The notes below the pieces were generated by a model. It worked only from the letters and a program-made list of their open reading frames with translations. It made no database searches and had not been told where the DNA came from. Of a stretch of 51,134 nt of DNA, positions 3,806 through 50,106 are shown piece after piece. A program made the translations under genes and the position numbers. This DNA comes from a virus (taxonomy: Duplodnaviria; Heunggongvirae; Uroviricota; Caudoviricetes): IMG/VR virus record IMGVR_UViG_2724679172_000007; one strand, written 5' to 3'. Each line of letters starts with the position of its first letter. The first letter of the stretch is position 1.

Positions 3806-3810
3806 CAGTA

Positions 3811-6800: not shown

Positions 6801-8391
6801 ATACAGCATCATCGTCACTTAATCCAAAGGCTGCCTTTTGCGCATCTGTATCAGTGTAACCATCTATAGCGTCATATCCCGCCATAGCCAGCGATCCGAT
6901 GATAGGGATAGCTCTTGCAGCTGTAGAAGCAGCTGATTTAACACCTATTTTTGCAGCACTTTTGAGGGCTACGGATTCGGTTTTTTTCTTTGCAACAGTT
7001 TCACCTGTTTTAACTGTGGCCTCTTCGGCAACAACACCTGCTGGCTTAACTGCCTTTGCTGTGTTTTTTGTTTCTTTAGCAATACCCTTAGATGCGTCGC
7101 TTGTGGTGCTGATGTCTTTGGCTTTACTAACCTTTGTTTTAACAGTCTTTGCAGCTCCAGCACCAGCTCCAGCAGCAGCGGTTCCGGCAGCGGCTTTTTC
7201 ACCAACAGAAAGGGCTTTTTTCCCCAGATTGCGACCTTTCCTTTTCGGTTTGTTCCGTTTATTTTTACCAGCCTGATCGCCAATATTGATTTTATTTCTT
7301 CTGCTTGCTCGATTTCTCCAGAGATCACTTAAGCCGAACTTATTCCCAGAAGATACTGATTTGCGTAGCTTAACTACTTCGTCGGAGACATTTTCCAGAC
7401 CATCAATTATTTTGTTGTCATTGGTCTGAAGAATTTTTGTTTGCTCTTCTACTGCTTGTGCTGATTTTGTCTCAACAGCATTATTAAATGCTGTTGCAGA
7501 GGTTGCTTTTTGAGTATTAACCACCGCCGGATAAGTGATAGCTGGAGATGTCGCTTTCGAAGGTGAAGCCTCACCTTTCCCCTTTTCTACCCATTCTTTA
7601 AGAGATTCTGCTTTACCTGTGATCTCTTTAGTAATGTCGTACATGCCGCGAGCAGCCATCCACAACGGACCACCAGCGCCAACACCTGCGGCATCTGTTA
7701 AAGACTCTTCACTGGAAGACTGATTGCCATCTACCCCTATAATGGAGCCTAATTTCCGGAGGAAGCCTTCTTGTAGTTTGGCGTCGGCCTTATGTGCTTT
7801 CTGCCATTCTTTTTTTCTGGCTATATCTTCGTTGTTTTTCTGGGATACAAAGCGTCCGTTACTATCCCGAAGCGGTCCTTTTTGGCTTTGGGGGGATTGT
7901 GGTTCAAGAGGAGCAGAATTAGCGGCTACTGGCACAGAACCTTTCAACTTTTGGGCTGACTGGCGTGATGACGCAAAATGAACGCGCTCTGATGTGTTGG
8001 TTGCAACAATGAGACGTTCTTCTCCGTTGTTGATCTGCGTCCTCCCTTTTTTCATCGGAAGGCGTTTTATATATGGGTTAGCTTGGGTGTTCTTGGCATC
8101 ATCAGAGACATAGGGTTCGCTTGCTATGAGTCTACGGGATAGTCTTTGACTTACTTTACCTTGATTTTCACCAAGTTGAGTTATAGACCCTCTACCAGAG
8201 AGAATGGCGTCTTTGATCTCAGCAAGAGCGTTAAGTTCGTTTGTGCTCGCCCCCTGAATAGCGTCAATTATTGCGATACGGTCTTTATTCTCTTTCAAAA
8301 TAACCTCTCTTTTGCCAGCGGCGATCAACGTTTCCCGGCTTGAGCTTTGTATTTTTCTTCCAGGGCTTTTGACATATGGAGTGCTCGCCAT
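3811..8391 (-). CDS. Tail tape-measure / structural injection protein (P1 Sit-like), with internal 25-aa tandem repeats
   Basis: 1526-aa ORF, Ala/Gly/Ser/Lys-rich and low-complexity; contains about 11 consecutive copies of KTPQQEQALAISQAMAGFSSAAPAP; followed by baseplate genes as in P1 (sit-pmgA-bplA-16-R-S). Confidence 0.6.
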   Translation of the reverse strand: MASTPYVKSPGRKIQSSSRETLIAAGKREVILKENKDRIAIIDAIQGASTNELNALAEIKDAILSGRGSITQLGENQGKVSQRLSRRLIASEPYVSDDAKNTQANPYIKRLPMKKGRTQINNGEERLIVATNTSERVHFASSRQSAQKLKGSVPVAANSAPLEPQSPQSQKGPLRDSNGRFVSQKNNEDIARKKEWQKAHKADAKLQEGFLRKLGSIIGVDGNQSSSEESLTDAAGVGAGGPLWMAARGMYDITKEITGKAESLKEWVEKGKGEASPSKATSPAITYPAVVNTQKATSATAFNNAVETKSAQAVEEQTKILQTNDNKIIDGLENVSDEVVKLRKSVSSGNKFGLSDLWRNRASRRNKINIGDQAGKNKRNKPKRKGRNLGKKALSVGEKAAAGTAAAGAGAGAAKTVKTKVSKAKDISTTSDASKGIAKETKNTAKAVKPAGVVAEEATVKTGETVAKKKTESVALKSAAKIGVKSAASTAARAIPIIGSLAMAGYDAIDGYTDTDAQKAAFGLSDDDAVSEQQKTAYATANVLDMGGLVSGATNLIGKGISALGFERAGEKLQNFDTGDIARGVNGAVDITKSVFGSLKDTFLSTDENTKQVKKAVEDGTKKTVDAIHSLGEQLQGGRNGEDGVGEHGYTSPTEFSAPANNTIAADLNIGGSNAKNRNYRNNNLGNLVFANQEGATLESPNAKGEQRFARFNTPEEGIRALANQVSSYYNGTSAAAGYQKLQTVSSIISKWAPPNENNTNQYIDNVSKYLGVSPNEKIDVSKPEVMTQLVRAIATKEGGNPAVNNEFIKNALGAFNTNTGRWEGQFSDETLARINKIQKENGGQLIARDSQYSVGRKVKYANGKSPAQPVLNAVPTATQQPIEVAQHAQAVKKPQKTGNQPQPINPENADVNTGSPSSLLERLIAINESGISGASNLFGGAATSLAGTSLDLVKDFALATSFGSISSLSEKAKGMDQALTEKISGLTGKSFGFKKASQVADIATAIQQKRTVNHDTEIIDLLPGDQVSPSTPKTPQQEQALAISQAMAGFSSAAPAPKTPQQEQALAISQAMAGFSSAAPAPKTPQQEQALAISQAMAGFSSAAPAPKTPQQEQALAISQAMAGFSSAAPAPKTPQQEQALAISQAMAGFSSAAPAPKTPQQEQALAISQAMAGFSSAAPAPKTPQQEQALAISQAMAGFSSAAPAPKTPQQEQALAISQAMAGFSSAAPAPKTPQQEQALAISQAMAGFSSAAPAPKTPQQEQALAISQAMAGFSSAAPAPKTPQQEQALAINQAMAGAAPVVTSGKRTITAPSDVQIYDNGYKVVTGEDKSFFGSLFDSTVSGLKQTGTAVIPAVGDNLSRLVGGIDSTGILNDLVMQSTGQNSAIARAISPLTRNVGDWLNGGIQQTANSIRGIATGANNAIFGSASAVQEPFLAMPPQLPTVTDLARSGIRQPLTTDTINNDPAMLKALDNICSILNDLLNVNKNNTKGDPDNVVKTSQPQPRPRASTTINDQSLDALLED
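4491..5295. repeat. Tandem direct repeat, 75-bp unit, about 10.7 copies, in-frame within the tape-measure-like gene
   Basis: Unit agcctggctgattgccagagcctgctcctgctgtggggttttcggtgctggcgctgcagacgaaaagcccgccat starts at 4501, 4576, 4651 ... 5251 (period 75); internal copies are identical, the first and last differ by 1-2 nt. Confidence 0.95.
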
Positions 8392-18020: not shown

Positions 18021-18035
18021 GTTTTCTAACACAAA
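18021..18035. promoter_or_regulatory. Operator-like site (GTTTTCTAACACAAA), member of a dispersed repeat family
   Basis: 15-mer nearly identical to sites at 27901-27938, 40195-40209 and 45445-45460; located in a divergent promoter region. Confidence 0.4.
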
Positions 18036-18046
18036 TCATTAGAGTT

Positions 18047-23736: not shown

Positions 23737-25354
23737 ATGAGTGAGGCAGAAGCCCGCCCGACTAACTTTATTCGTCAGATCATCGATGAAGATCTGGCCA
23801 GTGGTAAGCACACCACAGTACATACCCGTTTCCCGCCGGAACCGAATGGCTATCTGCATATTGGTCATGCGAAATCTATCTGCCTGAACTTCGGGATCGC
23901 CCAGGACTATAAAGGCCAGTGCAACCTGCGTTTCGACGACACTAACCCGGTAAAAGAAGATATCGAGTACGTCGAGTCGATTAAAAACGACGTTGAATGG
24001 TTAGGTTTTCACTGGTCTGGCAACATCCGTTACTCCTCCGATTATTTTGACAAACTCCATGCCTATGCTGTTGAACTGATCAACAAAGGCCTGGCGTATG
24101 TTGACGAACTGACGCCGGAACAGATCCGCGAATACCGCGGCACCCTGACGCAGCCGGGTAAAAACAGCCCGTACCGCGACCGCAGCGTTGAAGAGAACCT
24201 GGCGCTGTTCGAAAAAATGCGTACCAAATTCACCGTTTATCGTGATGCGCGATCCGGTGCTGTACCGCATTAAGTTTGCTGAACATCACCAGACTGGCAA
24301 CAAGTGGTGCATCTACCCGATGTACGACTTCACCCACTGCATCAGCGATGCGCTGGAAGGTATTACGCACTCTCTGTGTACGCTTGAGTTCCAGGACAAC
24401 CGTCGTCTGTATGACTGGGTACTGGACAACATCACCATTCCTGTTCACCCGCGCCAGTACGAATTCTCGCGCCTGAATCTGGAATACACTGTGATGTCCA
24501 AGCGTAAGCTGAACCTGCTGGTGACCGACAAGCACGTTGAAGGCTGGGATGACCCGCGTATGCCGACCATTTCCGGTCTGCGTCGTCGTGGTTACACTGC
24601 GGCTTCTATTCGTGAGTTCTGCAAACGCATCGGCGTGACCAAGCAGGACAACACCATTGAAATGGCGTCGCTGGAATCCTGCATCCGTGAAGATCTCAAC
24701 GAAAACGCGCCGCGCGCAATGGCGGTTATCGATCCGGTGAAACTGGTTATCGAAAACTACCAGGGCGAAGGCGAAATGGTCACCATGCCGAACCATCCGA
24801 ACAAACCGGAAATGGGGAGCCGTCAGGTGCCGTTTAGCGGTGAGATTTGGATCGACCGCGCCGATTTCCGCGAAGAAGCTAACAAGCAGTACAAGCGTCT
24901 GGTGCTGGGTAAAGAAGTGCGTCTGCGTAATGCTTACGTCATTAAGGCAGAACGCGTGGAGAAAGATGCCGAAGGCAATATCACCACCATCTTCTGTACT
25001 TATGACGCCGACACCTTAAGCAAAGATCCGGCAGATGGTCGTAAAGTGAAAGGCGTTATTCACTGGGTGAGCGCGGCACATGCGCTGCCGGTTGAAATCC
25101 GCCTGTACGATCGTCTGTTCAGCGTGCCGAACCCTGGTGCTGCGGAAGATTTCCTGTCGGTGATTAACCCGGAATCGCTGGTGATCAAACAGGGCTTTGC
25201 TGAACCGTCTCTGAAAGACGCGGTAGCGGGTAAAGCATTCCAGTTTGAGCGTGAAGGTTATTTCTGCCTCGACAGCCGCCATTCTACGGCGGAAAAACCG
25301 GTATTTAACCGCACCGTTGGGCTGCGTGATACCTGGGCGAAAGTAGGCGAGTAA
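23737..25354 (+). pseudogene. glnS: Glutaminyl-tRNA synthetase gene (glnS) disrupted by an internal frameshifting indel
   Basis: The N-terminal ORF (23737..24273; HIGH motif in [12 protein letters not shown]) and the C-terminal ORF (24188..25354; VMSKR motif) are consecutive GlnS pieces in different frames; the frame breaks at 24223-24232, where 10 nt (accaaattca) replace roughly 57 nt of the wild-type sequence as recalled. Confidence 0.8.
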
Positions 25355-25400
25355 TTTTAAGTTCAGTTAGGTTAATAGGTATTTCGCCACATAAAAAAGT

Positions 25401-25427
25401 AAACGCCGCTACTGCGGCGTTTTTTAC
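25401..25427. terminator. Bidirectional rho-independent terminator (glnS / dam convergent)
   Basis: Hairpin cgccgc-tact-gcggcg with an A-run upstream and a T-run downstream. Confidence 0.65.
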
Positions 25428-26329
25428 TTCATTATTGCAATTATATCGTTAGCAACTACACGTGTTGACGCCTTGCAGGACACCGACCGTCTGGCTGCCA
25501 TATGATGTACTTTAAACCCGTTTCCTTCATATAGTTCACGGATGTTTGGCGCACCACTATTTGTTATCACTACCTTAGCGCCGCGCTGGTGGGCTTCCAC
25601 CAATAGAGATACCAGCCGTTTCTGTTCGTCGAAACGGAAGCTATTTCCTGAATAACTGGTAAACCCTTCTGTATCCGGCAGCGGTTCATACGGCGGATCG
25701 CAAAAAATCACATCGCCTTCACCAGCCGCCTCGATGACGCCAGCAAAGTCACCTGATACAAAGGACGTGTTTTTGAGTACGTCATCAGCCAAAAATGCCT
25801 CCATCTCTGCATGTGGGAAGTAGGGCGCTTTGTATTTGCCATACCCCACGTTGAACTCGCCATTTTGGTTGTACCGCGTTACGCCATTAAAACAGTGCCG
25901 ATTAAGGTACAAAAAGGCGGCAGCATGATGTAGCTGGTCATACTTTCCTCTGTTAAATGCCTCACGCACTTCGAGGTAAGCGTCAGCGTTGTTGTAATTT
26001 TGGAAAAAACTATATGACAGCGTGACGAGCGAATGTCCTTCTCGCTGCAATGTCTGATAGAAGTTAATCAGGTCACCGTTAATATCATTAAGCAGGTTGT
26101 GGCAAAATCCTGCATTCGTAAATACGGAACCGCCACCAACGAATGGTTCTATTAACCGCTTACCGTGTGGTAGATGCTCAAGCACTGTAGGCAATTCTGA
26201 GAATTTACCACCTACCCATTTGAATATCGGACGCTCATATTCATCTGGAGTCCGAATGGTGCGCATATAGCTAATTTCAGCCATCGTATCCTGTTTTTCT
26301 ATGGCTATGCTTGCTATAGATTTACTCAT
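25424..26329 (-). CDS. dam: DNA adenine methyltransferase (Dam-like, D12-class N6-MTase)
   Basis: Contains the DPPY catalytic motif and an FVGGGSV-type SAM-binding motif; start set at the ATG at 26327-26329, preceded by an AAGGGGG SD and placed 2 nt after the upstream gene's stop. Confidence 0.75.
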   Translation of the reverse strand: MSKSIASIAIEKQDTMAEISYMRTIRTPDEYERPIFKWVGGKFSELPTVLEHLPHGKRLIEPFVGGGSVFTNAGFCHNLLNDINGDLINFYQTLQREGHSLVTLSYSFFQNYNNADAYLEVREAFNRGKYDQLHHAAAFLYLNRHCFNGVTRYNQNGEFNVGYGKYKAPYFPHAEMEAFLADDVLKNTSFVSGDFAGVIEAAGEGDVIFCDPPYEPLPDTEGFTSYSGNSFRFDEQKRLVSLLVEAHQRGAKVVITNSGAPNIRELYEGNGFKVHHMAARRSVSCKASTRVVANDIIAIMK

Positions 26330-27002
26330 AGAGCACCCCCTTATTCGCTTCGAAAACTGCCTTTGCGAATCCATGTGGAGTAGCACTTCGAAAATTAGCC
26401 CTGTCAGGCCCTGGTGGCGCGGCATGGATTCTGTTATCTGGCTTGCCTAATGATTCGTCCATTAGGGCATCAGGCATGACAAAGCCCTGGCCGCTCCAGA
26501 GGCATGTTTTTTTGGTGTAGTTATCTTCCTGACAATATGCAGTGAAGAAGTAAGGGTGAAAGATGTGATCTGGCTTACGCCAGAATGTCGATATTTTGCT
26601 GACCGGATTTTCAATCATGTACGGACAACCGATCATCTTTGCAATGTCATAACACTGCCAGACAACCTGCATTGCTTTGAACTGGAAAACCGGATCTTTA
26701 TTAGCCTTGTCCGAAAACCAGCGCGCGCCGGAAACAGCCAGGTCAGTACACGGTGGGAACCCGGCCAGAAACACGATGCGCTGCAAATTCTTACGGAGAA
26801 AAGCGTATACTTCATCGCTATCGATGATCGCACTAATACGCGTCAGAACGGCACCTGATTGCATCCGCTCGTCACTGGTCGATAAGTGCTGTGGATCGAC
26901 GATAGCGGCATCGACACCGTATTCCAGCCAGGGGGCAACCATTGCCCCCGTAAAATCACAAAGACTCACAACAAGCGGTCGGTTATTATCGTTCTGCTTC
27001 AC
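26322..27002 (-). CDS. Putative DNA cytosine-5 methyltransferase-like protein (short, atypical)
   Basis: [12 protein letters not shown] resembles C5-MTase motif IV (GGPPCQxFSxAG) and IENP resembles motif VI (ENV); only about 226 aa, so the target-recognition domain seems absent; tightly coupled to dam. Start uncertain (GTG 27002 or upstream). Confidence 0.4.
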
Positions 27003-27891
27003 CGCCAATGGCCTCCACCAGCGCGTTAAACAGTGCAGATAATTCGCCCGTAAAGAGCACGAAATCAGCATCAAATCGTTGTGCTACATCCTCCCGGTCG
27101 ATATCGTCATTCTGGTCATAGAGATCATCACAGAATGTCAGGGCTTTGATACTCATATCATCGTTGACTCTGAACGACGCGCGTTCCATCCAGTTAATTG
27201 CAACGGTCGTAGCTACTTTCCCCGCCTCAATGTGAGACATAATCTCGTCGGACTGTAGATCAACTTTGTTGCAGCGAACGGCACCACCATTATCGAGCAG
27301 ACCCTTTAATGTGGCGTCTTCACCTGCTGTAAATCCGGCAGGGAAGCCGCTTTTAAACCACTCGGTCATTGTAATTTCCAGCGGTTCGCGTGGTGTGAAT
27401 GGAATGACAGGCAGGCTGCTGAGCGATTTTCGCAATAAAGCCAGCTGGTCCTCTGCCTTTTTGGCGCTGCTTGCCTCAACGAATACCAGATGGTTGCTGC
27501 GGTCGATCAGGATTTTGGCAAGTGATTTTCTCGTGAACGCGCGAGGCAAAAGTGAATGCAGGACTTCATCTTTAAGACTGTCTCTTTCCGTTTTCTTCAG
27601 CTTGCGGGCTTGCTCTTCTTCGAGTTTCAGGACTTTTTTCTGCAACTCTTCCTTGAGCACCTGCGAGGGGAGAATTTTTTCTTCTCGCTTATGCTGTATT
27701 AGCAGAAAACCCTGGTATTCATGGGTGAGGTTGTCACCAAGAACGGAGGTCCAACCAGCTTTAGCCATATCCTGAGAACCGCATGGGGTAAACACAAACT
27801 TGCTAAGGGCTGCATTTACTTCTGCAGTATCCCAGCTAACTTCGCGTGAAAGACGATAGATGAAGATATTTTTGAAAGCGACTGATCTCAT
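26986..27891 (-). CDS. rdgC: Recombination-associated protein RdgC
   Basis: 301 aa; segments [81 protein letters not shown] match E. coli RdgC as recalled. Confidence 0.8.
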
Positions 27892-27900
27892 GTCTCACCA

Positions 27901-27938
27901 TTTGTGTTAGAAAATACATATTAATTATCTAACACAAA
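27901..27938. promoter_or_regulatory. Pair of inverted operator-like sites in the rdgC promoter region
   Basis: tttgtgttagaaaat (27901-27915) and atctaacacaaa (27927-27938) in opposite orientation, same motif as at 18021, 40195 and 45445. Confidence 0.45.
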
Positions 27939-27950
27939 TGGGTGCATTTT

Positions 27951-28604
27951 CTATCCTTTCTTGAAATCGAAGTTGCCAGCAGTGGCCTGAAAGGTTCCTC
28001 CTGCCTTGAAAGCTATGTCTCCGTTAGCGGTGACAGCTATATTTTCCCCATTAACATTGATGTTGTTGGCTGATTTGACGTTAACACTCCCTCCTGCATT
28101 CACGATTACATCAGCCGGACCAATGATATATATCTGCCCGGACTCATTCATGCCAATCCTTGAGCCTGCTGCCGTATTGGCAATTTCATAGCCGCCACCA
28201 GCAGTTCGTACTTCAAGAATATTGTTGCGGTGAATAACGAAGTCTTTCGTTGCTGAGATTTGGGGGCGGGGAGGTGCTCCATCTACTTCCGGCGGCGTCC
28301 AGCCGTTGCCTTTGCCAGATGCTTCTGGTGCAACGTTTGGAATTCCTCCCGGTGCATCCTGAGCGGCACCAACTATCATTGGGCGTCTGGTGTCTATTCG
28401 ACCGTTAACATCTAAATAAGGAAACTCTACCCAGACCAGGTCACCTTTGACTGTGGGTACAAAAGCGTTTCCGATGGGTAACAGGTATTCCGCCCAGGGT
28501 AGATCGTCATCAGGAACGCCATTCCAGTCAGGTAAAACACGGACTTGAGCACGCATAAGCCCTGCCGGGTGCACAGTTCCAACAATTTGCGCTCTACGCT
28601 TCAT
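27951..28604 (-). CDS. Baseplate central spike protein (gpV-like)
   Basis: 217 aa; OB-fold-like N-terminal part and a C-terminal Gly/Asn/Val-rich beta-helix repeat (VNAGGSVNVKSANNINVNGENIAVTANGDIAFKAGG). Confidence 0.55.
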   Translation of the reverse strand: MKRRAQIVGTVHPAGLMRAQVRVLPDWNGVPDDDLPWAEYLLPIGNAFVPTVKGDLVWVEFPYLDVNGRIDTRRPMIVGAAQDAPGGIPNVAPEASGKGNGWTPPEVDGAPPRPQISATKDFVIHRNNILEVRTAGGGYEIANTAAGSRIGMNESGQIYIIGPADVIVNAGGSVNVKSANNINVNGENIAVTANGDIAFKAGGTFQATAGNFDFKKG

Positions 28605-31140: not shown

Positions 31141-31210
31141 AAGCATCCTCAAAGGTCGATTTATCAGGTATCGAGGGTGCATTGTCTGGAGATTGTGATT
31201 TCAATTCATA

Positions 31211-31255
31211 TCCCAGCATGGGACTAAAGTGCTTTACATTGTCCCATATTGGGAC
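31211..31255. promoter_or_regulatory. Putative HigA operator: two copies of the inverted repeat TCCCA-N3-TGGGAC
   Basis: tcccagcatgggac (31211-31224) and gtcccatattgggac (31241-31255) just upstream of higB. Confidence 0.4.
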
Positions 31256-31285
31256 TACTATACTTTCAGAGAGAAGGAATCTGTG

Positions 31286-31588
31286 ATGAAAATAATTTCG
31301 GTAAAAACACTAAGGGATTTCTGGGCGAAGAATCCCGATGCAGAACAGCCATTAAAGGCATGGGTTGATGAAGCAACAAAGGCTGACTGGAAAAATCCGG
31401 CTGAGATCAAAGAACAGTACCGGACAGCCAGCATCCTTAAAAACAGGCGCGTGGTGTTCAATATTAAGGGAAATGATTACAGGTTAATTGTCGCAATTGC
31501 TTATCAGCGAGGATGGATGTTCGTTAAGTTTATTGGAACACATAAGGAATACGATGCCATTGAAGCGGATACAATAGAACTGGAGTAA
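31286..31588 (+). CDS. higB: Type II toxin HigB (RelE/ParE superfamily mRNA interferase)
   Basis: 100 aa; pattern KxLxDFW...KAW...WKNPAEIK...VFNIKGNDYRLI...FIGTHKEYD matches HigB toxins; toxin-first order with a downstream HTH antitoxin. Confidence 0.65.
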   Translation: MKIISVKTLRDFWAKNPDAEQPLKAWVDEATKADWKNPAEIKEQYRTASILKNRRVVFNIKGNDYRLIVAIAYQRGWMFVKFIGTHKEYDAIEADTIELE

Positions 31589-31591
31589 ATC

Positions 31592-31951
31592 ATGAACATT
31601 AAACCTATCCGTACAGAACAAGATTATGAGGCCGCACTGCGTGCGGTCGAACCGATGTTCGATAATGAACCGGAAATGAACACACCGGAAGGCGATTTCT
31701 TTGAGGTTATGTGTCTTCTCATTGAGGAGTACGAGAAAAAACATTACCCAATTGAGCCACCATCACCTATTGAGGCCATTAAATTCCGTATGGAACAGCA
31801 AGGACTGACCGTGAAGGATCTGGAACCGGCAATTGGTAAGTCAAACCGTGTTTACGAAGTGCTTAATGGGACACGAAATTTGACGTTACCTATGATTCGT
31901 CGTTTACATGCCCAGTTTGGTATTCCACTGGAAAGTCTGGTTGGTGTTTAA
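31592..31951 (+). CDS. higA: Antitoxin HigA (XRE-family HTH)
   Basis: 119 aa, 4 nt after higB; C-terminal HTH (LTVKDLEPAIGKSNRVYEVLNGTRNLTLPMIRRLHAQFGIP). Confidence 0.65.
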   Translation: MNIKPIRTEQDYEAALRAVEPMFDNEPEMNTPEGDFFEVMCLLIEEYEKKHYPIEPPSPIEAIKFRMEQQGLTVKDLEPAIGKSNRVYEVLNGTRNLTLPMIRRLHAQFGIPLESLVGV

Positions 31952-31956
31952 GTTTT

Positions 31957-31977
31957 GCGGTCTGGATGACCGCTTTT
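31957..31977 (+). terminator. Intrinsic terminator after higA
   Basis: gcggtc-tggat-gaccgc followed by TTTT. Confidence 0.45.
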
Positions 31978-32011
31978 ACATAAAATCAATGTTTAAATAT
32001 TTGGTAATTAT

Positions 32012-32746
32012 ATGAGCGCTGATTCATCAATAGAAAAGGAAAACTCCTCTACCCAAAATCTGTTAGAAGATGCTGTAAAAGATAAGTTGTTTAATAAGGT
32101 TTTTGCCTACATTTTTATTTCGTTTTTAATTTCTAATTGGCGAGACATATTTATATTACTGAAGTCAAAAGATGATGTTATGTATACATTATCTATAGTG
32201 TTTGTCGGGGAAAAGATCCCATTATTGGGGAATCTTTTTTTACCATCGTTCGTAGCTCATTTTGTTTTGCCTTTTATTTATGGTGTTGTGGCGTCAATAT
32301 TAGCGCCACTGTTAACCCTGTTAATTTCTTTGGTGACAAGCACATTATATGCTAAATTAAGAAAAATAGATGAAATTGCAAATAAAAAAGAACAAATAAG
32401 GACAATTAACAGTGATATTAAGAAAGCCATTAAGAAGCAGAGAGACGTTAAAAAGTATATTGAACAAGAAGAAGAAGAACTTGAATCATTAGAAAAACGG
32501 CTTAAAGAAATTAGGGAACAGATTGAATGTGTGGATAGCGATATCATTCATATTATTAAATTATATAGAGAGAAAGGTGAGAGCTTAAATTCGGTGGATG
32601 ATTTTTATGAATTTTTTACCGCCGTGAAAAACTCATCTTTTCGTTCGGGTGATACAAATGACAGGGAAACACTTGAGGAGCTTCTCTCAAAGCTTTCTGA
32701 TTCACTTGAAAAAATTAAATGCGATGCTAATAAAAAGGTGGGATAA
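32012..32746 (+). CDS. Low-GC membrane-anchored coiled-coil protein (unknown function; candidate exclusion/abortive-infection effector)
   Basis: 244 aa; conspicuously AT-rich codon usage compared with flanks; hydrophobic segments (FAYIFISFLISNW; LFLPSFVAHFVLPFIYGVVASILAPLLTLLISLVTSTLY) followed by a charged heptad-like region (KKEQIRTINSDIKKAIKKQRDVKKYIEQEEEELESLEKRLKEIREQIE). Confidence 0.5.
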   Translation: MSADSSIEKENSSTQNLLEDAVKDKLFNKVFAYIFISFLISNWRDIFILLKSKDDVMYTLSIVFVGEKIPLLGNLFLPSFVAHFVLPFIYGVVASILAPLLTLLISLVTSTLYAKLRKIDEIANKKEQIRTINSDIKKAIKKQRDVKKYIEQEEEELESLEKRLKEIREQIECVDSDIIHIIKLYREKGESLNSVDDFYEFFTAVKNSSFRSGDTNDRETLEELLSKLSDSLEKIKCDANKKVG

Positions 32747-32767
32747 ACCCACCTTTGTTAATTTTTT
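32734..32767. terminator. Bidirectional intrinsic terminator between convergent genes
   Basis: aaaggtggg-ataaa-cccaccttt hairpin followed by a T-run; overlaps the stop of the 32012..32746 gene. Confidence 0.5.
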
Positions 32768-38738: not shown

Positions 38739-39048
38739 ATTGGCAGCCTCCTTTGACTAAGTTAAGGAGCTACCGCGTGAGGTTCCAATCTCAATGGCGG
38801 TAGCACTGACTGGGTTGGAACTACCGGCGTCAAAGGGAACCGGCCTGCCTTTCGGCAGCCCAGCCAGCACTACCATTGATCTCTGAGCTAAACGCTACGT
38901 ATGGCTGTGCGATGGCATGACACAAAAAAGACGCTTTCGGCGTCTGTGTCGCCTTTGACATTATCCGGGGTTCCAATCCCGGCACCCGTTTTTCTAAGGT
39001 GCCGTAGAAATATACCCCACGATAATGCCAGGGCGCAACAGTCAGTAT

Positions 39049-40194: not shown

Positions 40195-40209
40195 ATTTTC
40201 TAACACAAA
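40195..40209. promoter_or_regulatory. Operator-like site (ATTTTCTAACACAAA) in the divergent ref / DUF4406 promoter region
   Basis: Exact 15-mer shared with the other dispersed sites. Confidence 0.4.
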
Positions 40210-40399
40210 ACATTAATATCATCACTGATAAATGTTTGGAGGACATGATGCTTATAGCTTTAAGTGCGATCCACCAGCCATCTGTGAATGAGATTGGCCT
40301 GTTCTATGTGTTGTTTTTCGGGGCGTTGGCGCTACTTGAGCTTGGTATTGAGCTTTTCGCAGTGCTTATGTTTTGCGTCACGATTTTGGGGAAATTTTG

Positions 40400-41337: not shown

Positions 41338-41815
41338 AGGTTTAACGCCAGCACAACTGGCAGAGCGTAACGCTGAGTATGTAACGGAAATTTCCCGACT
41401 TGAGAAAGAACGCTCGGCGCTGGCGGCGGAGAATGCTGGGCTGAAACATGCAATGGCTGTAACTCTTGAGCATGTGTCGGTCACGGATGCAGGGCAGGCC
41501 GGAGTTGCTGCAATGATTATCAACGATGCCCTGCACCACAGCGAAACTCCAGCCACCGATGCTTTTCTGGCTGAAATTCGTGCGGAGGCTCGCAACGAGG
41601 GGATTAACTATACCGCAAGCCGTCTTGCTGCTGCTTTCAACCACGGATTTATCAATAAGTCTTTACGTGAAGTTTTCGACGTTACACGCATGATTCTGTC
41701 AGCGAAAGAAGAGTTGGCTAATGAACCGCACCCGATTGATGGCCTGTCCGGTGAATATGCGGAGAAATCCCTTGAAGAATGGGCGGAACAGATTCGCAAA
41801 GGAGCTGACAAGTGA
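41327..41815 (+). CDS. Ea22-like family paralogue (shares central module with the 46781..47401 gene)
   Basis: Central segment ALAAENAGLKHAMAVTLEHVSVTDAGQAGVAAMIINDALHHSETPATDAFLAE is nearly identical at protein level to the paralogue at 46781; C-terminal EQIRKG tail. Confidence 0.45.
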   Translation: MKSEGLTPAQLAERNAEYVTEISRLEKERSALAAENAGLKHAMAVTLEHVSVTDAGQAGVAAMIINDALHHSETPATDAFLAEIRAEARNEGINYTASRLAAAFNHGFINKSLREVFDVTRMILSAKEELANEPHPIDGLSGEYAEKSLEEWAEQIRKGADK

Positions 41816-42222
41816 AGAAGATGATTTTTGTCGCGGCATTGTTGGTGAATATCCAACAAGTGCATGCTTCAGCAGCTATTGTAGCCTCTACCGCCGCGAC
41901 TACGGCTGCTGTAGCTGCTGCGAACTCTGCGAATATCGCAAACCAACAGGCACAGCGTGCTGCTAATGCATCAGCCAGCGTTCACTCAATCACCATTAAG
42001 AGCAGTAAGCAAAATCTGGGATTCATAACGTGCGGCACGCGTTCTAATGAAGCTGTAGGTTCACTTGGATGTACGGTATATGGGGGTAGTGAGAATAGAG
42101 AAATTCCATGGAAAACGTGGCCCGGATACGTTCTTGGCTCGAAGCTCCCGGCCAGTTATGAAGTAAACGCCGTATCGTTTGATCACTATAACGGCGTGGC
42201 AACGGTCTATTTTGCATATTGA
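41812..42222 (+). CDS. Small secreted protein (signal peptide)
   Basis: Signal-peptide-like N-terminus (MKKMIFVAALLVNIQQVHASAAIVAS); start overlaps the upstream stop. Confidence 0.4.
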   Translation: MKKMIFVAALLVNIQQVHASAAIVASTAATTAAVAAANSANIANQQAQRAANASASVHSITIKSSKQNLGFITCGTRSNEAVGSLGCTVYGGSENREIPWKTWPGYVLGSKLPASYEVNAVSFDHYNGVATVYFAY

Positions 42223-42230
42223 GGCTCCGC

Positions 42231-43031
42231 ATGAAATTCTCCAAATTTTCTGAGTTGGTGAATCGTATTTTGTTGAATCGTATTTTGTCCAACAACCACA
42301 GCCATCGTCGCGATATGGATGTAACGATCGTTGTTCATTCGCCTGGCAGCATTGGTTCAACACCCTCAGTTGAGGTTCAGTCAATTCACGCTGGTTTTGA
42401 TTGGGATTCCGGGAAAGTGCTGATTTTCCCAGCACAGCCACTGACCACGCTAACACCAGAACAGATTACTGATATTACTGATAGTGTGCGCAAAGGTCAG
42501 TCCTGGCACGCATATCAGGAATACAAGAAGCATCAAGAGCAGTTGGAAAAATTATCGATTGAACTTGATACCGCAAAACAGCGCATTGCAGAGCTGGAGG
42601 GTAATCGCGCGGCGCTGGCTGCGGAGAATGCGAGACTGAAGGCGATATGTGAGGATCGCCGCACGTTCATTATGAATGGCGTGCAGCTTGGTTTTATCAA
42701 GGTGCCAACAGTGGAAATAGATCCAGCTCTTGAAACAATTCGTATCGCCCTATCACCACAAAAAACCACTCCTGCGACCGACACTTTCCTGGATGAAGTG
42801 AAGACTGAAGCACGCAAGGAGGGCGCTTACTTTGTGGCGAATAGAATGCTGGCTGCCTGGGAAGCTGGTTTTATTGATGATACTGCGAAGAACGCCGCGG
42901 ATATTGCCCGGATGATTCTTACCTCTACTGAGTTTATGGCTAATGCGCGGGAAGGCGATTTTGACCGCTCATTCTCTGATGGTGTTCTCGAAGATATCGC
43001 TGAACAGCTTCGCAAAGGAGGCAGCCAGTGA
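42231..43031 (+). CDS. Ea22-like family paralogue
   Basis: Start at the ATG at 42231 after a GAGG SD; central coiled-coil (LEKLSIELDTAKQRIAELEGNRAALAAENARLKA) and C-terminal AEQLRKGGSQ tail shared with the family. Confidence 0.45.
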   Translation: MKFSKFSELVNRILLNRILSNNHSHRRDMDVTIVVHSPGSIGSTPSVEVQSIHAGFDWDSGKVLIFPAQPLTTLTPEQITDITDSVRKGQSWHAYQEYKKHQEQLEKLSIELDTAKQRIAELEGNRAALAAENARLKAICEDRRTFIMNGVQLGFIKVPTVEIDPALETIRIALSPQKTTPATDTFLDEVKTEARKEGAYFVANRMLAAWEAGFIDDTAKNAADIARMILTSTEFMANAREGDFDRSFSDGVLEDIAEQLRKGGSQ

Positions 43032-43669
43032 GCGAGCTTTACTATCAGACGTTACGTGAACGTTTTTCACCGAAACCAGCGCCTAAATGCTCTGTTTGTG
43101 GCGAGGAAATGTCAATGCAGCGCATATCTGGATCACATGTTGTTTATGCCTGTTCCGGCATGGAGGACGACGGATGCTTCAAAACTGGACGAACTTATGC
43201 TGACGAGCATTACAAAAAATCGCGCATAACAGTAGTTGATGATAGCGATCCTGATGTGATTGAACTGCTGGAAGAGAACATGGAGATGGCTCTAACGCTT
43301 GAGAAGCTGCGTGTTGAGCTGGAGGCTGCTAAACAGCGTATTGCCGAATATGAAAGCAATTGCGGGGCGATGGTGGCGGAATGCCAAAGCAAAAAAGCAG
43401 CACTTGAGGCAATTCTTAGCCATTGCCCAATTAATCATCCAGATATAGACATCGCATGTATAGCGAACATCGCTCATAACGAATTAGGCGAGGCGAAAAG
43501 CACTACATCTAAGGCATACCTTGTAGAAATACAGGCACAAGGGGTGGAGGCATTCGCTTTGACGATGCGCGATACCGGAGATGATCCATTTTTTGATTCC
43601 GTTGCTTCTGCTTGCGCGGATGCAGCTGATAGGTTCGCTGACCAGCTTCGAAAAGGAGGCAAACAGTGA
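43028..43669 (+). CDS. Ea22-like family paralogue with N-terminal Cys-rich zinc-ribbon-like segment
   Basis: GTG start overlapping the upstream stop (GTGA); LEKLRVELEAAKQRIAEYESN coiled-coil; C-terminal ADQLRKGGKQ. Confidence 0.45.
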   Translation: MSELYYQTLRERFSPKPAPKCSVCGEEMSMQRISGSHVVYACSGMEDDGCFKTGRTYADEHYKKSRITVVDDSDPDVIELLEENMEMALTLEKLRVELEAAKQRIAEYESNCGAMVAECQSKKAALEAILSHCPINHPDIDIACIANIAHNELGEAKSTTSKAYLVEIQAQGVEAFALTMRDTGDDPFFDSVASACADAADRFADQLRKGGKQ

Positions 43670-43914
43670 GTAATACCGCACGACTACAGCTTGGTTTTTC
43701 ACCGCTATCAAAAACCATCGTGTTGGCAAAAATGCGTGACTTAGGGGATGGAACAAAACGTCGTGTCGGCAATGATCGCGGTCGTGATGTAACCAACGAG
43801 GCCGCACAACTCGTTTGGCATCTAGTCATGGCTGAAGGCGGTGAAATTAATTGGGAGCTGGATGATGGTTCTCGCATGGTATTAAAGGCAGAAAAGCAGG
43901 AGCCACCACAGTGA
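43666..43914 (+). CDS. Hypothetical small protein
   Basis: 82-aa ORF translationally coupled to its neighbours. Confidence 0.35.
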   Translation: MSNTARLQLGFSPLSKTIVLAKMRDLGDGTKRRVGNDRGRDVTNEAAQLVWHLVMAEGGEINWELDDGSRMVLKAEKQEPPQ

Positions 43915-44219
43915 ATATCGACACCACGATAACGATCGATACGGCCCTAAATACCGGTCTGGCACTTCTCGGTTGGCTTTACATCATGTCCCGTACCTGG
44001 CGATGGCTGGGTTCCATTTTCCTAAAAGAGTGGAAAAAACGGCGCAAACAGGAACTACGCCAGAAGGCATTAGAAGCGTTCTATGACGCATTTGAACTTA
44101 GCCGCATTGAACCAGGCACAACAGCCAGAATAGCGATAAAAGGCGACCTGATGATAGTGATGTTCAGACAGGAGAAACCAAATGACAGAACAGACGATGA
44201 CAAATCGCGAACTTGTTGA
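43911..44219 (+). CDS. Hypothetical small membrane protein
   Basis: 102 aa with a hydrophobic N-terminal segment (LNTGLALLGWLYIM); the C-terminal part carries the EPGTTARIAIKGDLMIVMFRQEK module. Confidence 0.35.
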   Translation: MNIDTTITIDTALNTGLALLGWLYIMSRTWRWLGSIFLKEWKKRRKQELRQKALEAFYDAFELSRIEPGTTARIAIKGDLMIVMFRQEKPNDRTDDDKSRTC

Positions 44220-44406
44220 TGCCGCGATTGAACTTGCTGGCGATTTTTATTCCATGATGGGTTACGAGCATCGACCTGGTTTTAAGTATTGGGAGTCACC
44301 GCATCCGCAAGAACAACAGGTGTTTGAAATGGCCTGCCGTGCTTTTGAGGTTATTCGCGGTTCTGATGTGATGGAGGCCGTTGCCGACTTGGAGGATGAA
44401 GAGTGA
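44182..44406 (+). CDS. Hypothetical small protein
   Basis: 74-aa acidic ORF. Confidence 0.35.
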   Translation: MTEQTMTNRELVDAAIELAGDFYSMMGYEHRPGFKYWESPHPQEQQVFEMACRAFEVIRGSDVMEAVADLEDEE

Positions 44407-44714
44407 GCATCATTAAAGAAATGCCGGTAGAACGTGATGAATATGGCTGCTGGACACATCCGGAGTATGAGAAGTTTTGCGCAGGTCGTGAATATATTTC
44501 CACTGAGGAATTTGACGCCTGGATGAAGGAAAATAATCTTCAGTGGACTATTCGCAGTATGGATGAAGATGATTTTGATCTGGACGCAGCTGGTCCCGAT
44601 ATTGCCGCCTGGGAACCGGAGCGACCAGAGGGTGAAGGCTGGTTTGTTGGCTCTATTCATGACACTGAAGATGGTCCAGTTTGTATCTGGCTGCGGGAGA
44701 AGGTTGCCGCATGA
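44403..44714 (+). CDS. Hypothetical small protein
   Basis: 103-aa acidic ORF; its stop overlaps the phosphatase start. Confidence 0.4.
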
Positions 44715-45403
44715 TCCAGACTATGCATGAAGTGAATTTATATAGCCGTATTGATGGTTCTGGCTACAGAAACATATGGGTTGTTGGTGATCTGCATGGT
44801 TGCTACACCAGACTGATGTCCGAACTCCATCGTGTGGATTTTGACCCGGCGCAGGATTTACTGATATCGGTTGGCGACCTTATCGATCGCGGTACTGAAA
44901 ATGTCGAATGTCTGGAACTATTGCAGATGCCCTGGTTCAGGGCAGTAATGGGGAACCATGAGCGGTTGATGCTTGATGCGTTAAGTCCTGATGGCAACGT
45001 GAATAACTGGCTAATTAATGGCGGACAATGGTTCTTCATGCTGGGCACTGATCAGGAAATATTAGCCAAGGCGCTGGTGGAGCTGGTAAAGCGTCTGCCA
45101 TATATCATTGAGTTGAACACCGGGCATGAAACTATCGTTATAGCCCATGCCGACTATCCAGGTGGAGAGTACCAGTTCGGTAAGGATGTGTCGTTTTTTG
45201 ATGTTGTCTGGTCGCGCAGTCGCGTCGGTGATTCGATAGATGGCATTGGTGGAGAAATCACAGGCGCAGATCGCTTTATCTTTGGGCACACACCGGTACG
45301 AAGACCAAAAGCATACTGGAATCAGCACTACATAGACACGGGCGCGGTTTTTTGCGGAAATCTGACGCTAATGCAGGTGAAGGGAGGGCAGCTTAAAGTC
45401 TGA
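44711..45403 (+). CDS. Serine/threonine protein phosphatase (lambda PPase/PrpA-like metallophosphatase)
   Basis: Metallophosphatase motifs GDLHG, GDLIDRG and GNHE; about 230 aa; ATG overlaps the upstream stop (ATGA). Confidence 0.75.
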
Positions 45404-45444
45404 TCAAATCATTTACGCACTCAAATCACGTTAGAACATTGATT

Positions 45445-45460
45445 TTAGTTTTCTAACATA
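45445..45460. promoter_or_regulatory. Operator-like site (TTAGTTTTCTAACATA) with a partial inverted copy at 45430-45436
   Basis: Same motif family as 18021, 27901 and 40195; lies between the phosphatase gene and the 45501 gene. Confidence 0.35.
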
Positions 45461-45500
45461 TTATTTTACCGATCGGAACAAAACAGAGTCGGTATGCATT

Positions 45501-46496
45501 ATGAGTGCAATAATCACCCCATATGTCGTAAATGAAACTGGTGTGGCTGTCTTTCCTGTAGATAAGCCCACCAGCAATTACATCGGCGCAGGACGCCGTT
45601 TTCTTATATCCCCATTGCCGCGTGAACAGGCTGAAAACACCCCTGATGGTGTCGTTGACCTGAATTATTCACTGGTTGCCAACCAGTCACTGGCACCCTT
45701 TTTTCAAAGTGAGCGTGTATTTAACGCGTTAGGTGGTGAGGATTCTCTCGTTCACTGGGTTAGCACCAACATTCACGATTGCCAGGCGCATGATAAGCGC
45801 GATTGCAGCCACCAGCTAACCACCCATTTCTATAACGGTTCTGCCGTTCGCCTGTGCTGGAAGCATGATGCGGAATACATGATGAAGGGGTACAGCAAGC
45901 TGGAAGACCAACTGTCACTGAATCGCGCCAACTGGGTTATGAACTGGGCTGCCAGCGAGTTAAAACTTCCGCCAGAACGCGATCTGAGCATGGTTGAACT
46001 CACCTTTTGGGCTATTCGACGCAATCTTAAAGACGAGCTACCTGATGAAGCTGGTCGCATTGCATTTTGTCAGCCAAAAACTGAAATCCCTACCGGTACG
46101 CTGAAAGAATCAGATATCACCTGGGAGCGCAGTACGCGCGAGCTGGTGGACATAACCGCAGAGCAGATCGTCAACCTGTCTGTAGATGAGGATTCTGGCC
46201 TCCTATATATGCGCCGTCCAAAAACCTTACTCGGAAAAAGCCCGGCTTATCTCCGGTTTGTGGTGTCTCGCCCGTGTGTAGGCTGCGGCGGCAAGGTTAA
46301 TCACCCGTTCATGTACCGCGCTCGCTCGTTAAACGAACACGACCGCTGGGCTGTTCCTCTTTGCGATGAATGCGCCAGAAGCGCGGAAATTGATGTCCGG
46401 GCATGGGAAAAGGCACATGGCATACGCCTCTACGTTGCCGCCAACCAGCTTTTCGATTTCGCCATCGAGCGCGGAGTGATCACGTTTAATAACTGA
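45501..46496 (+). CDS. Hypothetical protein with C-terminal Cys cluster (CVGCGG ... CDEC)
   Basis: 331-aa ORF downstream of an operator-like site. Confidence 0.45.
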   Translation: MSAIITPYVVNETGVAVFPVDKPTSNYIGAGRRFLISPLPREQAENTPDGVVDLNYSLVANQSLAPFFQSERVFNALGGEDSLVHWVSTNIHDCQAHDKRDCSHQLTTHFYNGSAVRLCWKHDAEYMMKGYSKLEDQLSLNRANWVMNWAASELKLPPERDLSMVELTFWAIRRNLKDELPDEAGRIAFCQPKTEIPTGTLKESDITWERSTRELVDITAEQIVNLSVDEDSGLLYMRRPKTLLGKSPAYLRFVVSRPCVGCGGKVNHPFMYRARSLNEHDRWAVPLCDECARSAEIDVRAWEKAHGIRLYVAANQLFDFAIERGVITFNN

Positions 46497-46592
46497 TTGG
46501 GATAAAGGCATGAGCATGGAGCCAGGCGGCACCATCCGCATTGCTACAAAGGGAGGCCTGGTAATCATGATGTATCGGAAGGAGGAAGCCAA

Positions 46593-46784
46593 ATGAATAA
46601 AGCCTCACCAGCAGAGTTAAGAGCAAGTCTAGAGATGGCGCATAGCCTTGCTCAAATTGGAGTCAGGTTTGTACCAATTCCAGTTGAAACAGACGAAGAA
46701 TTTCAAAGGTTAGCGGCATCTGCAGCACAAAAGCTGGAAATCATGGCAGCGAAAGCAGAGAAAGCGGAAGGAGGCAGACAGTGA
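46593..46784 (+). CDS. Hypothetical small protein
   Basis: 63-aa ORF preceded by SD GGAGGAAG; stop overlaps the next gene's start. Confidence 0.35.
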   Translation: MNKASPAELRASLEMAHSLAQIGVRFVPIPVETDEEFQRLAASAAQKLEIMAAKAEKAEGGRQ

Positions 46785-47401
46785 GTGAAACTAACTATCA
46801 GGAGTTGCGTGAAGCGGCGCAACAGGCTTCGCAAGGAGAATGGATCGCATACATTTTGCCGGGTGAAAACGGTACTACATATCCGGTACATACGTCTGAG
46901 GGTAGGCATTGTGGATTCTTTATGGTCTGGCCTGGCAATGATGGACTGAGGAATGCTGGCGCCAATGCCCGTTATATCGCTGCTATCCCACCAAAAGTTG
47001 CGTTGTCACTACTGGATGAAATTAAACGTCAGGAGGACTCAAATATTGATGCTATGTGCCGTATTGCAGAGCTTGAAACTAATATCGCGGCGCTGGTGGC
47101 AGAGAACGCCGGACTGAAACACGCAATGGCCGTAACTCTTGAGCATGTGTCGGTAACGGATGCAGGGCAGGCCGGAGTTGCTGCGATGATTATTAATGAT
47201 GCCCTGCACCACAGCGAAACGCCAGCTACCGACGCTTTCCTGGCGGAAGTGCGGGCGCAGGGGGTGGATATGGCTCGTAACGCGATGATTGATTTTGTTG
47301 ATGGTGAAGTTGGGCCAAACAAGAACGTTCCGGGGCTGATTAGAGGCGCAGAGATATGCGTAAGTATTGCTGAACAGCTTCGCAAAGGAGGCAACCAGTG
47401 A
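46781..47401 (+). CDS. Ea22-like family paralogue
   Basis: N-terminus MSETNYQELREAAQQASQGEWIAY resembles the Ea22 N-terminal region; central module shared with the 41327 gene; C-terminal AEQLRKGGNQ. Confidence 0.5.
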   Translation: MSETNYQELREAAQQASQGEWIAYILPGENGTTYPVHTSEGRHCGFFMVWPGNDGLRNAGANARYIAAIPPKVALSLLDEIKRQEDSNIDAMCRIAELETNIAALVAENAGLKHAMAVTLEHVSVTDAGQAGVAAMIINDALHHSETPATDAFLAEVRAQGVDMARNAMIDFVDGEVGPNKNVPGLIRGAEICVSIAEQLRKGGNQ

Positions 47402-48042
47402 GCGAAATTAACTATAAAGAACTGCGCGAGGCGGCGAAACAGGCAACGCAAGATGAATGGGTAGCATATATTTTGCCGGGTCATAACGGCATTTATCCTG
47501 CGCGCACGTCTGAGGGTAGGCATTGCGGATACTTTATTGACTGGCCTGGCGTCTGTCAGGGGCGGGAGAGCATCAGCATGAGCATCAGAACCTACGCAGT
47601 GAATTGCAATGACGCATGGCTAAACACCGAAGGTGATGACATCTCCGGCTCATACGTTAAGTACAAAGACCATCAGGAAGTGGTTGCCGCTCTTGAGGCC
47701 AAGTGCGCGGCGCTGGCAGCGGAGAATGCGGTAATAAAGTCTGCAATTCCAGAACCACGGGATATTGAGGACGACAATGACAATATGGATGACGTATCTC
47801 TTGCTGAAGATTTCGGGTTCAATCATGCAATAGAACGGATGAGGAGACGGATTCCTGAAACTCCGGTCACCGACGCTCTCCTGGCTGAAGTACGTGCGCA
47901 GGCGTTTAATGACCTTTGCTCGGTGTTCGTTAAGGACGCGACGGTTGCCGGGCTGGACGATGGCGACATCGTTACGGTGAAAGAAGCGACGGACGCCCTG
48001 CTGCATTGTGCGGAGCAGCTTCGCAAAGGAGGCAACCAGTGA
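47398..48042 (+). CDS. Ea22-like family paralogue
   Basis: N-terminus MSEINYKELREAAKQATQDEWVAY; C-terminal AEQLRKGGNQ; GTGA-type overlap with neighbours. Confidence 0.5.
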   Translation: MSEINYKELREAAKQATQDEWVAYILPGHNGIYPARTSEGRHCGYFIDWPGVCQGRESISMSIRTYAVNCNDAWLNTEGDDISGSYVKYKDHQEVVAALEAKCAALAAENAVIKSAIPEPRDIEDDNDNMDDVSLAEDFGFNHAIERMRRRIPETPVTDALLAEVRAQAFNDLCSVFVKDATVAGLDDGDIVTVKEATDALLHCAEQLRKGGNQ

Positions 48043-48662: not shown

Positions 48663-48834
48663 TGCGTGTGGCATGTATCGGCTTGTTACCGTACCCGACT
48701 CGTTTTTGGGCTTCTGCGCTAATTGCAAAGCCACATGTCCTGATGGCTGACAACATCATCCCGGCACCAAAGCGCCGCCATACCGGTATTGCATCGGCAC
48801 GACGAGCAGCAAAGAGACGCAGGAGAGCAAAACG

Positions 48835-49023: not shown

Positions 49024-49024
49024 T

Positions 49025-50061: not shown

Positions 50062-50072
50062 TCACCATGCTA

Positions 50073-50104: not shown

Positions 50105-50106
50105 AT

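Follow-up and report, generated by a model that had tools for sequence, protein, structure and literature searches.

In phage P1, the C1 operator Odmt (formerly Op68; ATTGCTCTAATAAATAT) lies over the -35 element of the promoter Pdmt, at the head of an operon with the order Odmt-Pdmt-uhr-hrdC-dmt. The c1, lpa and ref genes of P1 are also under C1 control. The last gene of the operon encodes Dmt, in which a canonical N-terminal half of the cytosine-C5 methyltransferase (C5-MTase) family PF00145 is fused to Dam. The Dam half of Dmt is annotated as GATC-methylating and has been reviewed as such (PMC12707154). The P1 pac site must be Dam-methylated for packaging and dmt is thus essential only in dam- hosts (PMC12707154); in a CRISPR interference screen of P1, hrdC and dmt were found to be non-essential (PMC10695390). 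Here we describe a related locus in the 51,134-nt stretch of Caudoviricetes DNA deposited as IMGVR_UViG_2724679172_000007 (the whole stretch is referred to as the window), which carries rdgC, a gene for a short C5-MTase-like protein and a gene for a Dam-family adenine methyltransferase. The locus is probably the D6-lineage counterpart of the C1-repressed Pdmt operon of P1, with the short protein as a putative minimal DNA enzyme that makes 5-methylcytosine. This reading is built on the gene identities, the coupling of the genes, an inverted repeat, the distribution of a sequence motif, a predicted fold, the catalytic residues, purifying selection and a cassette swap.

The window belongs to a D6-like phage-plasmid. 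Over 2.8 kb, the locus is 98.5% identical at the nucleotide level to Escherichia phage D6 (MF356679), where orf65, orf64 and orf63 correspond to the three genes and are ordered as they are here. Matches were also found in 128 plasmid records (E. coli, Salmonella and Shigella), of which 126 are classed as non-mobilizable and the listed ones are mostly of about 75-98 kb; the carriers are D6-like phage-plasmids, relatives of P1. In the GenBank annotation of D6, orf65 is described as an RdgC family gene similar to P1 hrdC, orf64 as a putative DNA-cytosine methylase and orf63 as an adenine methylase that resembles only the C-terminal half of P1 dmt. The public D6 record therefore already covers the operon, the gene calls and the similarity to P1; it includes neither the operator nor the fold of the orf64 product. 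The operon, the D6 equivalent of a classic regulon of P1 and annotated as such, is mainly useful for annotating D6-like plasmids of E. coli, Salmonella and Shigella, in which RefSeq often lists the short gene as a 'hypothetical protein' with a start 10 codons too far downstream.

Gene organization of the D6-type operon

The features of the locus are collected in Table 1. As the earlier note had proposed, the three genes lie on the minus strand and are translationally coupled, and the start/stop overlaps can be read in the sequence. The short open reading frame begins with a GTG codon, preceded by GGAGG, that lies 17 nt inside the end of rdgC, and its stop codon is overlapped by the ATG of the Dam gene (ATGAGTAA, 8 nt). 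The longest open reading frame for Dam begins upstream of 26329, and the ATG at this position is supported by the D6 annotation and by homology to P1. Starting at the GTG codon, the short protein has the length of about 226 residues given previously, and the RefSeq start 10 codons later yields 216 residues. The longer form is preferred because the GTG codon and the extension VKQNxNNRPL are kept in variants down to approximately 75% DNA identity, and because this N-terminal extension forms the first β-strand of the predicted model.

Table 1. Coordinates of the operon, its control region and related features in the window.
Feature	Position	Strand	Description	Basis
Dam-family N6-adenine DNA methyltransferase gene (D6 orf63)	25424-26329	-	301 aa; ortholog of the C-terminal half of P1 Dmt	
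Gene for short C5-MTase-like protein (D6 orf64, PHROG 757)	26322-27002	-	226 aa; catalytic domain only	
rdgC (D6 orf65, P1 hrdC homolog)	26986-27891	-	301 aa; RdgC-family DNA-binding protein	
Putative promoter/operator region of the rdgC operon	27898-27953	-		inverted repeat, promoter scan, motif enrichment
Bidirectional intrinsic terminator between dam and glnS	25392-25422	both		terminator scan and sequence
Candidate operator motif copy, divergent region between ref homolog and orf88 operon	40195-40212	+		motif search
Single candidate operator motif copy between major capsid gene and orf52	18021-18038	+		motif search

The two flanking proteins are readily classified. Residues 6-298 of the rdgC product match Pfam family PF04381 (E=2e-102), the protein scores 380.7 bits against the NCBIfam model NF001462 (cut-off 330), and it shares 52% identity with P1 HrdC; by these matches it is a member of the RdgC family. 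The Dam protein matches PF02086 with E=5e-56 and 190.6 bits (cut-off 22) and TIGR00571 with 250.5 bits (cut-off 114.85), and falls below the cut-off of the E. coli Dam equivalog model (239.6 versus 441). Its translation contains the stretches CDPPYEP, with the DPPY catalytic motif, and FVGGGS. It is 69% identical to residues 478-753 of P1 Dmt, and from this identity to the Dam half its specificity is most likely GATC.

In D6, the 5′ third of the pacA homolog holds five GATC sites within 132 bp (3715-3846 of the D6 stretch, outside the window). This cluster is the densest in the first 12 kb of D6 and is a candidate for a methylation-sensitive pac site like that of P1.

The short C5-MTase-like protein and its exchange with the P1-type module

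The predicted structure of the short protein is a complete and confident catalytic domain with a class I methyltransferase fold, nearest to the solved catalytic domains of C5-MTases and with DNMT3B as the best match. In the model the secondary structure elements follow the canonical order, from strand 1 through a helix and strand 2 onwards to strand 7 and the C-terminal helices, and the positions of the sequence motifs were set by this order. An alignment of 66 family sequences, with 34-83% identity to the window protein, shows that Cys85, Glu131 and Asp36, the latter at the end of strand 2, are invariant. The Pro-Cys of motif IV, with Cys85, is followed by threonine instead of glutamine (PCT), and motif VI reads IENP, in which Glu131 and Pro133 are invariant and Asn132 is present in at least 90% of the 66 sequences. 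The Pro-Cys pair, the unusual PCT and the motif VI-like sequence remarked on earlier are thus all present, and are conserved across the family. A further conserved stretch of the alignment is RSxTPxGFAxAV.

Two other motifs, as placed by this order, appear to deviate from those of the canonical enzymes. In place of FxGxG, the motif I position has SLCDFTG, with Asp16 conserved in at least 90% of the sequences, and in place of QxRxR the motif VIII position has YTKKTCLW, with Lys164, Thr166 and Trp169 invariant. Between the strand at 166-171 and the helix at 201-206, where canonical enzymes hold their target-recognition domain, only residues 172-200 are found, and the target-recognition domain between motifs VIII and IX is absent. 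The short protein is therefore best described as a complete catalytic domain without a reader domain, rather than as a truncation.

The only family match of the protein is to PHROG 757, 'DNA methyltransferase' (E=4e-78). It matches no Pfam family at E≤1, PF00145 included, and nothing in the NCBIfam and PADLOC scans. Comparison with the PDB sequences, by phmmer and with the profile of the 66-member family, gave noise only (BH2621, E=0.44; KtrA, E=1.2). In hhalign comparisons, the family profile aligned over the motif III-VI region both with the single sequence of the N-terminal half of P1 Dmt (0.3% probability) and with DNMT3A, for which an approximate query sequence was used (8.9% probability, only a lead); both alignments are non-significant. 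The profile searches named in the earlier note as a possible refutation thus gave no assignment to a non-methyltransferase family, PHROG 757 being the only match and the predicted fold that of a C5-MTase.

The family is large. It covers approximately 3% of the deposited phage genomes, and a tblastn search finds it in 1591 phage records, including Drexlerviridae, other E. coli siphoviruses, large E. coli myoviruses, and phages of Klebsiella, Campylobacter, Flavobacterium and Vibrio. More than 7900 proteins are present in a 90%-identity database and 1592 clusters at 50% identity, with members typically of about 200-280 residues. None of the listed members has a Pfam domain of its own, the sole Pfam entry being RdgC on an rdgC read-through product. 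The exact window protein occurs on at least 1000 contigs, mostly under the name 'hypothetical protein'. Among D6-like plasmids, the ratio of nonsynonymous to synonymous substitution rates (dN/dS) of the short gene is 0.065-0.084 at dS values of 0.6-1.6; by this measure the gene is under strong purifying selection.

Several domain fusions and genomic neighbourhoods link the family to DNA. A 563-residue metagenomic protein (P0121, encoded at 218-1909 of the single 2-kb contig SRR32529081_32625) consists of a family member fused to a D12 Dam domain, in the same order as the two D6 genes; it is 65% identical in the shared part and has an insertion of about 40 residues in the loop after strand 7. 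A second fusion partner is an HNH nuclease, and in one member a winged-helix-type domain is matched below the Pfam threshold. Structural relatives also form part of phage proteins that contain a helicase. The family gene adjoins a DNA helicase gene in E. coli siphoviruses with genomes of 44-45 kb and stands alone in the nin region of Cronobacter lambdoid prophages, between ninB and ninE/ninF. The fusions, the genomic neighbours and the cassette swap described below suggest that the short protein works on DNA.

It is unlikely, in our estimation, that the protein is an active enzyme other than a plain DNA C5-methyltransferase, with another substrate (RNA or tRNA as for DNMT2, single-stranded DNA, or uracil) or another transferred group such as carboxymethyl. 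The deviating motif I and VIII positions and the absence of a target-recognition domain would fit such a change. E. coli makes carboxy-S-adenosylmethionine (carboxy-SAM) through CmoA, which would provide a donor for carboxymethyl transfer. Phages do use such chemistry, as one report describes a phage CmoX that transfers carboxymethyl from host carboxy-SAM; however, the same report states that CmoX is typically found together with phage CmoA and CmoY ligases (PMC12783734), none of which is annotated in D6. Moreover, every domain fusion seen is with a DNA enzyme (Dam, HNH or helicase), the best structural match, DNMT3B, is a DNA methyltransferase, and in D6-like plasmids the short enzyme is interchangeable with a canonical C5 DNA-MTase domain.

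A non-catalytic, scaffold-like role is less probable still. Such a role might be read from the translational coupling of the short gene to Dam, from the joining of the family to a Dam domain in at least one metagenomic protein (P0121), from the absence of a DNA-reading domain, and from the best structural neighbours, the DNMT3 enzymes, which work in heteromers. However, the P0121 fusion is known from a single 2-kb contig, and the invariance of the nucleophile Cys85 and of Glu131 in the 66 sequences is not expected of a scaffold. Nor does the family keep to the company of Dam: at four prophage loci, between ninB and ninE/ninF, no gene with a Dam-type Pfam domain lies within the 8-10 kb shown, and the family occurs in about 1600 phage records versus 365 for the D6 Dam query, the latter under a stricter limit (E≤1e-20).

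The relation of the short gene to P1 Dmt is apparent from a subset of the D6-like plasmids that match the locus in three pieces. In p13ZX36-90 (NZ_MN101855.1) and FDAARGOS_1059 unnamed1 (NZ_CP066033.1), a single gene, coding for 762 and 691 residues, respectively, lies between rdgC and glnS and joins a P1-type PF00145 domain in frame to a D6-type Dam. The backbone of these plasmids, their rdgC, the operator, the C-terminal part of Dam and the neighbouring glnS are as in the window. Along their DNA, similarity to the window is lost at position 26254 (Dam codon 25) and returns precisely with the stop codon of rdgC, 26255-26985 of the window being replaced. From these breakpoints it follows that the exchanged unit is the short gene together with Dam codons 1-25 on one side, and a canonical C5 domain plus linker on the other. 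The N-terminal 25-30 residues of the D6 Dam protein resemble the interdomain linker of the fused Dmt in D6-like plasmids, and the fused and separate forms are therefore historically connected.

On this comparison the relation between the short gene and the C5 half of Dmt is that of cassette replacement in the same slot. At this swap site, located between rdgC and Dam, a canonical C5-MTase domain fused to Dam alternates with a free-standing minimal C5-like enzyme. As natural genetic evidence for equivalent jobs of the two modules, the swap argues that the short enzyme and the canonical C5 domain are functionally equivalent.

The proposal that the genes represent a split version of P1 Dmt stands for the organization and for the Dam half, with its 69% identity, and fails for the orthology of the cytosine module. 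Alignment to P1 Dmt reveals no similarity of the short protein to the C5 half: BLASTP returns nothing (E=2.9). A homolog search with the N-terminal half of P1 Dmt yielded only close relatives of P1, too narrow a set for a broad PF00145 profile. The short protein as the split-off C5 half of P1 Dmt was ruled out on the BLASTP result, the hhalign probability of 0.3% and the differing Pfam status. It is likewise extremely improbable that the short gene is what truncation or decay has left of that half after a split from the Dam half. Its position and order do match those of the C5 half, and the linker-like N-terminus of the D6 Dam protein would be in keeping with a split, but there is no detectable similarity to the C5 half, the predicted catalytic domain is complete, and the breakpoints are those of an exchanged whole cassette rather than of a truncation. 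The suggestion that the protein may be truncated is further contradicted by the 1592-cluster family, by the typical length of its members (about 200-280 residues) and by the dN/dS of 0.065-0.084 (about 0.07).

Candidate operator and surroundings of the operon

An inverted operator-like pair had been proposed upstream of rdgC. The pair was found, and extends 3 nt beyond the end given for it previously. Its arms (27898-27915 and 27924-27941) are 18 nt each, are 94% complementary and are separated by an 8-nt spacer. The window contains four copies of the 11-nt core motif TCTAACACAAA, where 300 Markov simulations give an expectation of 0.05. Each of them is intergenic; two make up the pair at rdgC, and the others are single copies at 40195 and 18021. 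As read by eye, the copy at 40195 lies within the spacer between a -35 element TTGATT and a -10 element TAATAT, and upstream of it is a degenerate inverted partner, spaced as in the rdgC pair (TTAGA-N16-TCTAA). In D6, the motif is located upstream of c1, lpa, the rdgC operon and ref/orf88, the c1 and lpa copies being diverged and outside the window. The D6 consensus ATTtTCTAACACAAAT and the P1 operator have ATT..TCTAA..AAAT in common, and D6_1, also outside the window, is annotated as similar to P1 c1. The motif is thus likely to be a D6 C1-type operator to which the repressor would bind.

The predicted promoter is sigma-70-like and weak, with -35 TAGAAA (27953-27948), an 18-nt spacer and -10 GATAAT (27929-27924). 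It has 9 of 12 matches, and the promoter scan overall performed no better than on shuffled sequences. The upstream arm of the repeat overlaps the promoter spacer and the -10 element, and the downstream arm covers the predicted transcription start and the 5′ untranslated region as far as the ribosome-binding site. The GG of GGTGAG, a Shine-Dalgarno-like sequence, forms the end of the 3′ arm.

The inverted repeat persists across D6-like plasmids, with both arms changing in step. In the transcript sense, one pair of positions is G-C in D6, G-U in one plasmid and A-U in another, and the two arms in a Shigella plasmid have an altered outer part and yet remain complementary. The comparison upstream of rdgC comprises three informative variants (L009 3598-3632, L013 2888-2922 and L011 ~3060-3110). 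The arm changes could reflect tolerated operator positions, an added RNA hairpin, or co-variation with the repressor. It is nevertheless quite improbable that the repeat is mainly an RNA or DNA hairpin, for example one that occludes the rdgC ribosome-binding site in read-through transcripts, and not a repressor operator. The pair series from G-C through G-U to A-U, the altered yet complementary Shigella arms, the reach of the 3′ arm into GGTGAG and the short distance between rdgC and the baseplate gene upstream (59 nt) would all suit a hairpin. However, single unpaired motif copies precede c1, lpa and orf52, and a hairpin cannot account for these. The single copies also differ (C or T) at the variable position, a change that the repressor may simply tolerate, and the arm comparison covers only three informative variants. 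The two roles are not mutually exclusive.

A terminator role of the inverted repeat was considered and rejected, because no T-run follows the repeat. The terminator between dam and glnS consists of a 9-bp GC-rich stem followed by a T-run on each strand, the hairpin being located at 25401-25422.

The operon is flanked by tail and baseplate genes upstream, and a plasmid-borne glnS (glutaminyl-tRNA synthetase) gene converges on it from downstream. Compared to D6, the dam-glnS spacer of the window (25355-25423), which holds the bidirectional terminator hairpin, is 21-24 nt longer. The adjoining glnS (23737-25354), an intact gene of 553 codons in D6, is broken in the window at 24223-24228, where D6 bases 60411-60463 (53 nt) are replaced by 6 nt, leaving open reading frames of 178 and 388 residues; the window copy is either a pseudogene or the result of a sequencing or assembly error.

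Other parts of the window also differ from D6 or recall P1. The gene for a sit-like tail transglycosylase (3811-8391, minus strand) encodes 1526 residues versus 1260 in D6, and at 4326-5402 about 1.08 kb of the window stands in place of about 250 nt of D6. The higBA-like toxin-antitoxin region (31201-32762) and a long rightward operon of small genes (41588-50655) are mosaic relative to D6, with blocks of 86-98% identity and unmatched stretches between them. Rfam searches identify a C4 antisense RNA at 38793-38880 (minus strand, 77 bits) and an isrK Hfq-binding small RNA at 38924-39002 (minus strand, 63 bits). These RNAs adjoin homologs of icd and of the anti-repressor, in a region that corresponds to a P1-like immI immunity region.

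Proposed function and comparison with known systems

From the features described above we infer repressor binding, methyl transfer, DNA as the substrate, specificity and the biological role of the operon. In the lysogen, the D6 C1 homolog would bind the two inverted operator copies across the -10 element and the transcript start, so that the operon is silent; such repression would keep foreign cytosine methylation off the host chromosome. Upon induction or infection, with C1 gone, the three proteins would be co-produced and act on the replicating phage DNA. RdgC/HrdC, a DNA-binding ring protein, presumably tempers RecA-dependent recombination on this DNA. The minimal enzyme, with its C5-pyrimidine methyltransferase fold, would most likely add 5-methylcytosine at a short or loose site and so provide further protection. 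Dam would methylate GATC as in P1, thereby licensing pac cleavage and protecting from enzymes that cut GATC only when it is unmethylated.

Several points weigh against this reading. No sequence profile ties the short protein to the canonical C5-MTases, whether in Pfam, NCBIfam, PADLOC, the PDB profile search or hhalign, and the protein lacks any domain able to read a DNA sequence. Given the deviations in motifs I and VIII, its contacts with cofactor and base could differ from those of known enzymes. A literature search revealed no biochemical or methylome evidence for any member of the family, and no characterised short C5-MTase. The DNA of Klebsiella phage KP36, which has no annotated cytosine methylase, is anecdotally reported to resist EcoRII, and its authors credit the host Dcm (PMC3620542). 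The GATC cluster in the D6 pac region is modest, suggestive rather than convincing. On the regulatory side, the predicted promoter is weak, the position of the operon 59 nt downstream of the baseplate gene makes read-through from a late operon possible, and the matching arm changes would also fit an RNA hairpin.

What remains of interest is the minimal C5-like family itself, which is abundant, is covered by neither Pfam nor NCBIfam models, lacks a recognisable DNA-reading domain and appears to deviate in motifs I and VIII. A further, rather unlikely possibility is that PHROG 757 represents a distinct class of minimal C5-pyrimidine transferases without a target-recognition domain, with near-non-specific cytosine methylation or with an altered base or transferred group. 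Near-non-specific methylation would make these proteins the cytosine counterpart of M.EcoGII, and an altered pocket might be reflected in the invariant Lys164 and Thr166 where canonical enzymes have RxR. If the family is unusual in this way, the prophage would have to keep the gene tightly repressed through C1, as its expression would be harmful to the host. Low-specificity cytosine methylation would also bear on restriction evasion and methyl-dependent restriction of phages and phage-plasmids, and might yield a footprinting reagent.

Among modification enzymes of temperate elements, Mom of phage Mu and M.EcoGII are promiscuous phage enzymes that are silent in lysogens (PMC12707154). They share with the D6-type operon, as proposed here, the logic of a modification enzyme that is repressed in the prophage state. 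Unlike the short protein, they modify adenine and have another fold, and promiscuity is for the D6 enzyme only a possibility. The closest structural relatives of its predicted fold are the catalytic domains of DNMT3A and DNMT3B (e.g., PDB entries 6u8p and 4u7t). With the PF00145 enzymes M.HhaI, M.HaeIII and Dcm it shares the fold, the motif order I-VIII followed by X, the Pro-Cys nucleophile and the Glu-Asn-x sequence, but it is about 100 residues shorter and has no PF00145 match at E≤1. With approximately 29 residues from strand 7 to the C-terminal helices, it has no small domain, in contrast to these enzymes.

The most similar system overall is the Odmt-Pdmt operon of P1. In both, an operator, in the window a candidate one, is located at the promoter, and an rdgC homolog comes first, followed by a cytosine-type module and then by Dam. 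In P1, the two methyltransferases form a single 754-residue fusion, of which the PF00145 half contains a target-recognition region, whereas the window encodes a separate 226-residue protein of an unrelated sequence family. In addition, P1 has the extra small gene uhr and a single (monovalent) operator, where the window has an inverted operator pair.

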